Assembly (NCBI GenBank): GCA_965263355.1
Contig: CBDHHL010000032.1
Span: forward strand, 1,920,001-1,984,000
From: Leptolyngbyaceae cyanobacterium
GTDB lineage: Bacteria > Cyanobacteriota > Cyanobacteriia > Phormidesmidales > Phormidesmidaceae
Length of the DNA: 64,000 bases
Reading direction: 5' to 3'
Shown: piece after piece, positions 19,928-21,256 of the stretch
How the letters are laid out: every line of letters starts with the position of its first letter
How positions within the stretch are numbered: position 1 is the first letter of the stretch
Program-made: the position numbers and the translations under genes
The notes under the pieces: model-generated
Databases searched by the model: none
Told to the model about the DNA's origin: nothing
What the model saw: the letters and a program-made list of their open reading frames with translations, nothing else

Positions 19928-21256
19928 TCACCTCCCTTCACTAACTTGCTCATACTCAGAGATAAGACTTTGGAGATTACGCTCTGCTTCCCTAAACTGC
20001 TGCTCATTCATCCCTTCATAAGTATAAAAATCAAAAAACTCTTTACGACGAAATAGCGTATCGAACTCTTCGAGCACTCTCAGCAATAAGATCTGGATTG
20101 CAGTTGTGTTGTTTGCAAATGTTGCAGAATACTCCAGGGCAAACGTTGGAATCTCACACACTAAATTATGAACACTATCAGAAATCGATGAGCGGATATA
20201 ATCAGCATTTTCCACCTGAATCTTGGACATCTGTTGGTCCACGTCTCTGCTCGACATGTCTCCTCTAAAACAAGTATAGGCTTTGAGTAACTGCCCTTGG
20301 CGTGGATCAGCAGCAGCCAGCATATTGTCTACGTTGAACATTTGTGGAACCAGTTCTGGTAGAGTTCTCGCCTCATACTGACGACTCCCAATAGAGAGGA
20401 TCGGGGCAAGCCCTGGCGTAATAAACTTCAAATCAGGTGATGGTGCTAGATTAGCCACCATATCTTTTAAGGTCCAGCGGTCTGAATTAGCAAGTGGTAG
20501 CCTCAATGGAACAGTCAAACCACTTATCGTTTGTGCCACAGTATAGTTGATGTCGTTCCAGCTTGGATTTTGTATTCCAAGTGAATGACGACAAGTATTG
20601 TAAAGGTGCTCATTGTCGAAACAAAAGGTTAAATCAGCATTTTTTATGAGATGTTCGATCCCAAGTGTCGCGTTGTAAGCACTGGTGATACTTTTGTCAC
20701 TAGCCGAACTACAGCCTAACTGAGTGGACGAGGGGAAGACAGAAAATGTGACAATTGGTTTTTCTGGATATTCTTCCTTTAATTTAGAAAGTAACAGCGC
20801 CCCCATTCCAGAGCCGGTCCCTCCTCCCAAAGTATGGAGAAGCATAAACCCTTGAAAATTTCGATAGTCAATCGTATCAACTTCCCGGCGAACCCCTTCC
20901 AAGACCTGTTCAATATATTCAGTCCCCTGTGTATAAAAGCCTTTGGCCCAGTTTTTAGTTGTTCCTTCTGCTTTCGTGAAAAAGAAGTTGTCGGGTCGAA
21001 AAATTTCTGCAAAAGAACCGCTACCGTACACCTCAGTAGTCAGCCTATGGTCTAAATCGGCAAGTATTGCTCTGGGAATATATGCACCTCCTGGTACTTT
21101 ATGACAAAAAATCTCAACGTGTTCTCGTTGCCGTTCATCATGTCCACGCCATCTGCGTGTGTGGTCAATCTCATGTTCACGAAAAAACATTTCCCAAAAT
21201 TTACACCCAATTCGGTTGCCACCTTGACCAAGGTGAATGGTAATGATCTCGTTCAT
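19928..21256 (-). CDS. Beta-tubulin-like protein (eukaryotic tubulin family, not FtsZ)
   Basis: MNEI start (cf. MREI), GQGGN.IG.KFWE, YIPRAILADL, IFRPDNF, NWAKG.YT.G, signature GGGTGSGMG, YNATL, DNE.LY, AADPRQG, FRRK and EAE.NL..LISEY. The ORF track extends to TTG 21286. Confidence 0.95.
   Translation of the reverse strand: MNEIITIHLGQGGNRIGCKFWEMFFREHEIDHTRRWRGHDERQREHVEIFCHKVPGGAYIPRAILADLDHRLTTEVYGSGSFAEIFRPDNFFFTKAEGTTKNWAKGFYTQGTEYIEQVLEGVRREVDTIDYRNFQGFMLLHTLGGGTGSGMGALLLSKLKEEYPEKPIVTFSVFPSSTQLGCSSASDKSITSAYNATLGIEHLIKNADLTFCFDNEHLYNTCRHSLGIQNPSWNDINYTVAQTISGLTVPLRLPLANSDRWTLKDMVANLAPSPDLKFITPGLAPILSIGSRQYEARTLPELVPQMFNVDNMLAAADPRQGQLLKAYTCFRGDMSSRDVDQQMSKIQVENADYIRSSISDSVHNLVCEIPTFALEYSATFANNTTAIQILLLRVLEEFDTLFRRKEFFDFYTYEGMNEQQFREAERNLQSLISEYEQVSEGR

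Follow-up and report, generated by a model that had tools for sequence, protein, structure and literature searches.

The window, that is, the whole 64-kb stretch of cyanobacterial DNA analyzed here, encodes a beta-derived tubulin that falls short of three defining features of canonical beta-tubulin, namely Lys254, Asp251 and the acidic C-terminal tail, and whose gene lies beside that of a eukaryote-type actin (Table 1). In our preferred reading, to which we assign a probability of roughly 0.45, the product is most likely a GTPase-poor, non-dynamic tubulin-fold protein. The finding, a bacterial cytoskeletal protein acquired horizontally from eukaryotes, is real and unusual, and the interest of the locus is carried largely by the bacterial tubulin family that it reveals and by the actin neighbor.

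Table 1. Coordinates of the tubulin gene, its functional loops and its surroundings in the window.
Feature	Positions	Strand	Remarks
Beta-derived tubulin ORF	19928..21256	-	442 aa, ATG start, no introns
T1 loop, residues 10-17	21206..21229	-	Gln11 kept; Cys12 to Gly, Gln15 to Arg
T3 loop, residues 99-101	20954..20962	-	Ala-Gly-Asn to Thr-Thr-Lys
T4 glycine signature loop, residues 144-150	20807..20827	-	intact
T5 loop, residues 175-193	20678..20734	-	6+1 inserted residues
T7/H8, residues 251-272	20441..20506	-	two residues longer than in beta
C-terminal end of H12 and stop	19928..19975	-	acidic tail absent
Eukaryote-type actin, 384 aa	18458..19612	+	convergent (tail to tail) with tubulin
Terminator-like hairpin, 10 pairs and T run	19799..19823	-	3' of tubulin; consensus match only
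Terminator-like hairpin, 11 pairs and T run	19671..19698	+	3' of actin; consensus match only
Host flank: lipoate ligase and GcvH-like gene	16538..17954	-	
Flanking small-molecule cluster	21588..32384	.	context only

The tubulin reading frame is intact and open from its ATG, and both tubulin domains, GTPase and C-terminal, are present (Pfam Tubulin, E 8.9e-48; Tubulin_C, E 6.1e-18), as is beta ancestry. The best 60 of 172 matches in a PDB sequence search are all beta-tubulins (top E 1.3e-125), identity to eukaryotic beta-tubulins is 46-47%, and an AlphaFold model (pLDDT 68.6, pTM 0.78) compares with microtubule tubulin chains at a TM-score of ~0.85. At 71 alpha/beta diagnostic columns the protein carries beta states in 32, alpha states in 10 and other residues in 29, which, together with its position in the tree discussed below, confirms the beta-type assignment of the preliminary description. 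The fold and most diagnostic residues thus match eukaryotic beta-tubulins such as Drosophila beta-1 (PDB 6tis), from which the protein differs by Asp in place of Lys254, Thr in place of Asp251, a longer T7 loop, a T5 insertion, an altered T3 loop, the absent tail, the lack of an adjacent alpha gene and its bacterial host.

That host was correctly recognized at the outset. Many tubulin matches in genome bins are eukaryotic contaminants, and the locus could by the same token be an assembly chimera or eukaryotic contamination, an explanation that is largely refuted and to which we give hardly any probability: introns are absent, the nearest relatives are bacterial, and third-position GC content (tubulin 0.39, actin 0.475) falls inside the 0.29-0.53 spanned by 20 other window genes. 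Furthermore, two short-read contigs from sequencing run X1 (17629-19830 and 19801-21436) overlap across actin and tubulin, and X1 depth over the two genes (17-19) is like that of the flanks, although this read support is not independent, as X1 may be the source sample. A run from another study (X4) gives no cover over 20304-20967 and no joining contig, and no inference is drawn from it. The flanking genes look cyanobacterial, a reading supported by a cluster member that is named as a protein of a cyanobacterial metagenome-assembled genome (MAG). On the other side of the actin, the frame at 17361-17954 (-) encodes a GcvH domain beside the lipoate ligase, with ~65-75 extra N-terminal residues that resemble a signal peptide and linker; the ligase (LplA) has no close kin in 401 cyanobacterial genomes (best 57%), so that a tubulin-free version of the site is not visible there. 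Farther away, 38023-41977 (-) and 45098-46233 (-) hold fragments resembling a large restriction-modification/helicase system, together with a split transposase, and a 647-aa ORF of that region has no family match.

Residue-level comparison locates the divergence. Asp265 (codon 20462-20464) aligns with beta Lys254 in both HMMER and MAFFT alignments, anchored by Asn269 at N258 and Pro272 at P261, so the acid initially noted at position 254 is indeed placed there. The T7 residues N249 and D251 are replaced, with Thr262 at position 251, and a local Asn-Ser-Asp (257-259) fits N249/D251 only in an alternative alignment register. In the T5 loop, whose insertion of about seven residues had been seen earlier and is real, Asp179 is kept (as D187) and Glu183 has become Ser192; none of the other 10 rows in alignment A1 shows the insertion, that of the sister protein P0012 included. 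P0012 does share Lys101 of the T3 loop, and the T1 changes are also found in cyanobacterial relatives. The loss of the acidic tail likewise holds, with 3 Asp/Glu among the last 15 residues versus 9 in insect beta, and changes extend to the H11 contact residues 406/407 and to residues 346-352 of S9. The GTP-site, plus-end and minus-end residues compared here are working sets defined without a structure calculation, and T7 positions are shared between the pocket set and the minus-end set. By these sets, the window tubulin departs from 10 of 21 conserved positions in the GTP site (E71D, G100T, N101K and E183S among them), from 16 of 28 at the plus end and from 17 of 24 at the minus end. For the GTP site and the plus end, the numbers do not significantly exceed the divergence of the protein as a whole (p 0.42 and 0.086) and may reflect general drift. 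GTP may still bind, given that Gln11, Asp69, the T4 loop, Asp179, Asn206 and Asn228 are kept as the core of the pocket. The neighboring actin, the N249/D251 replacement and the changes at several GTP-pocket residues had all escaped the preliminary description.

Very long branches, the loss of the partner gene and changes scattered over all functional sites might suggest a functionless relic of a decaying alpha/beta operon under relaxed selection. We regard this as highly improbable: full open frames are kept in two lineages that are only 53-54% identical, one terminator is intact, and conserved columns are retained far more than variable ones (p 6e-7 and 1e-7). In comparison with the cyanobacterial protein P0015, for instance, the window tubulin is identical at 87 of 130 columns shared by alpha and beta versus 53 of 145 variable columns (p 6e-7), a pattern indicating that selection on the fold core continues.

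The nearest single-domain homologues are non-eukaryotic and rank above ordinary beta-tubulins (P0012, 53%; P0015, 52%; P0017, 52%; P0020, 49%), and one of them, P0015, a protein of a cyanobacterial MAG, is itself ~82% identical to eukaryotic (animal) beta. In a quick tree search, in which branches are long and BtubA/B are not among the sequences, the window tubulin and P0012 group with SH-aLRT 100 (branches 0.39, then 0.55 and 0.45) and the pair nests in a cyanobacterial beta clade (99) with L001, P0121 and P0017. The pairing is to be read with caution in view of the long branches, yet it is backed by 45 shared derived residues. The window gene thus descends from the cyanobacterial branch of a bacterial beta clade and, with P0012, evolved fast. 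P0012 lies on a 4,104-base Logan contig, and an LplA from the 90% cluster of the window LplA is also found on a 4,104-base contig; if this equality of size means that both share one contig, the same locus would combine tubulins at 53-54% identity with LplA proteins near 90%.

Searching species genomes with the homologue alignment yielded 53 matches at 31 loci, 10 of which hold tandem tubulin pairs: one in a cyanobacterium (L001), four in gammaproteobacteria (L015, L017, L021, L025) and five in myxobacteria (L013, L014, L016, L018, L020). The alpha/beta pair is thus a two-gene unit in all three groups. The other 21 loci were set aside, without individual tests, as probable eukaryotic contamination, most being 75-99% identical to insect beta and short or broken; L010-L012 have no matching table-11 ORF and L030 consists of fragments of about 50%. 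Among 401 sampled cyanobacterial genomes only one, the genome at the center of the search (G001), contains tubulin. A metagenome scan (185 matches, 43 loci, mostly eukaryotic beta) contributed L035, with alpha plus beta, and L053, a partial beta that adjoins trpA on a contig ending inside the beta gene, and a profile search of 50% representatives added two distant members with the same T7 motif (P0205, P0242). None of the nine pattern matches in a single-protein scan of genome contigs and none of 151 matches in viral contigs was confirmed, and the ESM Atlas returned eukaryotic tubulin clusters only.

Several members are of interest in their own right. L013, L014, L016, L018, L020, L021 and L025 hold tandem beta-like and alpha-like genes from myxobacteria, Microbulbifer epialgicus and another gammaproteobacterium, and several of their alpha-like subunits lack Glu254. 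The cyanobacterial alpha-derived family (L001, 1919-3073 (+); P0270-P0274) is about 360 residues long, with roughly 75 residues of the second domain missing and Glu254 mostly kept; in L001, the partner of this short alpha is a beta with 82% identity to animal beta. A Thiothrix genome (G003) carries, in addition to an alpha/beta pair and an actin-like gene, a third, solitary beta-like tubulin (L088, 919-2358 (-)).

The clade to which the window tubulin belongs is marked by Asn2, Phe52 and a lengthened T7 with Thr251 and Asp/Glu254, all present in the window protein. Position 254 is Asp or Glu in 10 of the 11 aligned members and position 251 is Thr in all 11, so that Asp251 is lost throughout, whereas Asp251 and Lys254 are invariant in the 53 eukaryotic beta rows. 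Importantly, these changes occur together with alpha. Usable DNA context existed for four relatives, and all four carry an adjacent alpha-derived gene, downstream of beta in L001 and upstream in L015, L017 and L035, in contrast to the window locus; contig sizes suggest two more alpha pairings (P0121/P0272, both on 45,490-base contigs, and P0017/P0525, both on 4,080-base contigs). Asp/Glu254 is already found in the four alpha-paired betas, and tail loss already in L001. The acid at 254 therefore predates the loss of alpha, and the comparison argues that it arose as remodeling of the alpha/beta dimer interface; the evidence does not support the earlier proposal that Asp254 evolved for function in the absence of alpha.

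In the least diverged betas, the changes map to the face that contacts the protein's own alpha. P0015, P0121 and P0028 have none of the 28 conserved plus-end positions changed, as opposed to 12, 12 and 9, respectively, of the 24 minus-end positions (p about 4e-6 for P0015 and P0121). Of the 12 changes common to the whole clade, five map to the colchicine pocket, a set of 12 among 285 conserved positions (p 3.6e-5), with the pocket residues drawn from the lists in PMC5844890 and PMC5535829. As described in PMC13394414, Lys254 keeps the intradimer GTP unhydrolyzed, while the account in PMC10319017 implicates Glu254 together with Asp251 in catalysis. The gain of an acid at 254 and the loss of one at 251 thus amount to a rebuilding of the intradimer site across the clade.

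The convergent actin gene adds a second eukaryotic element to the locus. Its product is unmistakable in family (Pfam E 5e-122; 577 bits against beta-actin) and altered in detail: Gln137 and Glu107 are both replaced by Ala, the D-loop is three residues shorter, and 11 residues are inserted after residue 287, at a presumed filament contact. Gln137Ala is common to the window actin and Microcoleus-type actins; eukaryotic actins dominated the homologue search, no relative of the window actin exceeded about 69% identity, and its position in the actin tree is unresolved. The region's two longest terminator-like hairpins face each other between actin and tubulin (7 such sites in the region versus 3.3 expected), which suggests two expressed units. 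One promoter-like site upstream of tubulin, against 7.6 expected, is below chance and is given no weight. The gcvH-actin and actin-tubulin intervals hold no ORF of at least 90 aa, and 18 scanned ORFs gave no profilin match.

Tubulin/actin co-occurrence recurs yet is not obligatory. Among five genomes that encode tubulin pairs, two (G001 and G003) possess an actin-like gene, the one in G001 being near-pristine and flanked by cyanobacterial genes. Of 401 cyanobacterial genomes, 4 gave long actin matches, three of them without a tubulin match. Direct adjacency was found only at the window locus among the loci examined. Near-pristine actins also occur in cyanobacteria of the J06592_8 MAG, Roseofilum and Microcoleus (L032, 1489-2619 (+); P0496; P0504), the Thiothrix actin-like gene lies among similar short ORFs (L033, 870-3935; one Nif11 match weak and below the cut-off), and a Polyangia MAG has a profilin gene (L014, 19081-19497 (+); Pfam E 4e-17) ~6.5 kb from its tubulin pair.

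We propose the following sequence of events. By homology and the tree, an alpha/beta tubulin pair moved from eukaryotes to bacteria in one or several transfers. The beta of one clade then rebuilt only the face toward its own alpha, while keeping its plus-end face, by lengthening T7, replacing Asp251 with Thr and Lys254 with Glu or Asp, and reshaping the colchicine pocket behind; this may have loosened the locked intradimer GTP site and suited folding and pairing without the chaperonin CCT or tubulin cofactors. The window gene, with no alpha beside it, then evolved fast along with P0012 while its fold core remained under selection. At this last stage, GTP hydrolysis is probably no longer coupled to assembly, given that Asp251 is gone, that Asn101, Gly100, Glu71 and Glu183 are changed, that T5 carries an insertion and that the plus-end face is eroded. 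The protein would act via its surfaces, as a scaffold or binder in the form of a monomer or static oligomer, alongside the neighboring actin, which is altered in the same style, and Asp265 would be an inherited, shortened Glu rather than a new catalyst. We count the parallel losses in the actin as support for this GTPase-poor reading; against it, BtubB with its aberrant T7 loop is described as still supporting some GTPase activity (PMC2746283). A non-polymerizing, ligand-binding decoy had been offered initially as a fallback, and its idea of a protein that does not polymerize comes close to this conclusion.

The same residues have to be weighed under the model first put forward in the preliminary description, in which the protein assembles by itself, here taken to stack as FtsZ does, with Asp265 completing the nucleotide site of its neighbor and Lys101 on the plus face replacing the trans lysine of beta Lys254 in a charge-swapped Lys101/Asp265 interface. 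What speaks most for such a homopolymer is that the window tubulin and P0012 have two derived states in common, Lys101 and the replacement of Glu by Asp at 254; in addition, the window has no alpha gene, Asn-Ser-Asp 257-259 could replace the T7 Asn-x-Asp, and BtubA/B are reported to fold without chaperones and to have an activating T7 in both subunits (PMC3232192). We nevertheless find it unlikely. The acid at 254 is older than the alpha loss, Asn-Ser-Asp is conserved in neither P0012 nor P0015, and P0045 combines Lys101 with Lys254, which means that Lys101 needs no acid opposite. Furthermore, the changes in H11 and S9 noted above count against it, and BtubA or BtubB by itself sedimented as a monomer according to PMC2746283. 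A homodimer model with GTP and Mg scored 0.00 in both runs (mark 0.42) and was counted neither for nor against. By extension, it is similarly doubtful that the locus represents a one-locus minimal kit of eukaryote-derived cytoskeletal proteins, in which a self-stacking beta descendant, independent of CCT and cofactors and held by Lys101/Asp265, would be combined with an actin slowed in hydrolysis. If true, the window gene would stand last in a series, still traceable among its relatives, that leads from a full alpha/beta pair through a rebuilt interface and an internally deleted alpha to no alpha at all, that is, the origin of the tubulin heterodimer run in reverse.

An alpha partner could instead be encoded elsewhere in the genome. 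A tblastn search of the window with four alpha queries matched only the tubulin ORF itself and yielded no alpha gene or remnant, as had been observed at first, and the tubulin's lone status thus covers the 64-kb window. An alpha-derived partner in a loose, BtubA/B-like heterodimer, or a role for the protein in modulating an alpha/beta pair, as a second beta paralogue, would agree with the two tandem tubulins at all 10 loci judged truly bacterial and with the Thiothrix genome, where a solitary beta-like gene accompanies a pair. This, too, seems improbable, as a search with the cyanobacterial alpha brought up, in its best 120 of 924 matches, neither a protein from the window's 3,935,139-base contig nor a further close member of the family from these same two sources, and no second tubulin from the contig was found among the best 120 of 2,186 matches in the tubulin search. 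Moreover, the alpha-facing surface of the window tubulin has drifted beyond that of its partnered relatives (17 of 24 positions changed versus 12 of 24).

The genes upstream of tubulin encode two CmcI-type methyltransferases, two cupins, SAM methyltransferases, a Rieske oxygenase, a PLP decarboxylase, a DUF3326 protein and a flavin amine oxidase. Tubulin closes a run of ten ORFs in the same orientation (29511 to 19928), no terminator-like site separates it from the upstream methyltransferase, and the changes common to the clade are over-represented in the colchicine pocket, all of which would fit a ligand sink or sensor whose rebuilt pocket binds a putative methylated small molecule made by these genes. 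The genomes tell against such a role, which we hold to be very unlikely: the cluster's decarboxylase occurs in 7 of 401 cyanobacterial genomes, none with a tubulin match, while the tubulin-bearing G001 has neither the decarboxylase nor the cluster, and the pocket changes are common to gammaproteobacterial relatives whose loci have no such cluster. Since the cluster is found in tubulin-free cyanobacteria (with conserved gene order in G279, G303 and G142, which have no tubulin match) and is missing from G001, any functional tie between the two is weak. Coupling of tubulin and cluster as a general rule is ruled out, given their separate occurrence. Relative to other cyanobacteria, the window cluster has been expanded by duplication and has added the Rieske oxygenase. 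It also includes a chimeric ORF (25454-26461 (-)) whose N-terminus copies the methyltransferase at 23593-24237 and whose C-terminus copies the decarboxylase at 26815-28146, with 85% and 96% DNA identity over 300 bases to the two sources; it may mark the seam of a duplication or an error of assembly.

The Prosthecobacter proteins BtubA/B are likewise bacterial tubulins of a eukaryote-like type. They are characterized in PMC3232192 by weak dimers in addition to the folding and T7 properties cited above and in PMC2746283 by about 35% identity to alpha/beta, and have recently been grouped with Asgard AtubA/B (PMC13394414). By analogy, they would be the nearest working model for the partnered relatives of the window tubulin. 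The window clade differs in being clearly beta- and alpha-derived, and the window locus has no btubC-like gene and no A+B operon, its tubulin being neighbored by actin and a methyltransferase. Judging by its exclusively beta matches among those best 60 PDB entries and by its nesting in the beta half of the tree, the window tubulin is not a BtubA/B member; its folding without chaperones would be expected from the bacterial host. Two alpha/beta-branch tubulins were also noted in the giant gammaproteobacterium Beggiatoa, where Yutin and Koonin (2012, PMC3349469) mention them from partial genome data, and the portion of that paper available to us holds no interface analysis, cyanobacterial member or orphan form; the Beggiatoa pair is plausibly kin of the Thiothrix pair (L017). 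For the actin, the closest parallel is ActM of Microcystis, a eukaryote-type actin in a cyanobacterium that is adapted to work without the usual regulators and whose neighbor is the profilin PfnM (PMC3254629). The window actin instead neighbors tubulin, lacks Gln137 and carries the 11-residue insertion.

In the survey passages available to us, true tubulins are very rare in bacteria, comprising those of Prosthecobacter and other Verrucomicrobia and the passing mention of Beggiatoa (PMC13394414, PMC9871819, PMC3349469), and a 2023 survey describes bacterial tubulins as confined to Prosthecobacter (PMC9871819). The string 'cyanobacter' is absent from the main text of the 2026 paper PMC13394414, and a review of the cyanobacterial cytoskeleton treats tubulin, in the sections available, only in general terms or in relation to FtsZ (PMC7766704). 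Within the literature outside subscription papers, we found no paper describing alpha/beta tubulins in cyanobacteria, the change at the interface or an actin gene beside a tubulin gene.

A family of clearly alpha- and beta-derived tubulins, some 82% identical to animal beta, thus spans cyanobacteria, gammaproteobacteria and myxobacteria, with the window gene as its most derived, partnerless state. As the shared changes are concentrated on the intradimer face and the colchicine pocket, two long-standing questions become testable in E. coli, namely which residues are responsible for the dependence of alpha/beta tubulin on CCT and the tubulin cofactors, and what purpose the locked N-site GTP and Lys254 serve. 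Near-pristine relatives, such as the L001 beta with its short alpha, may suit such experiments better than the window gene, and the family as a whole could show how tubulin works without eukaryotic folding helpers.
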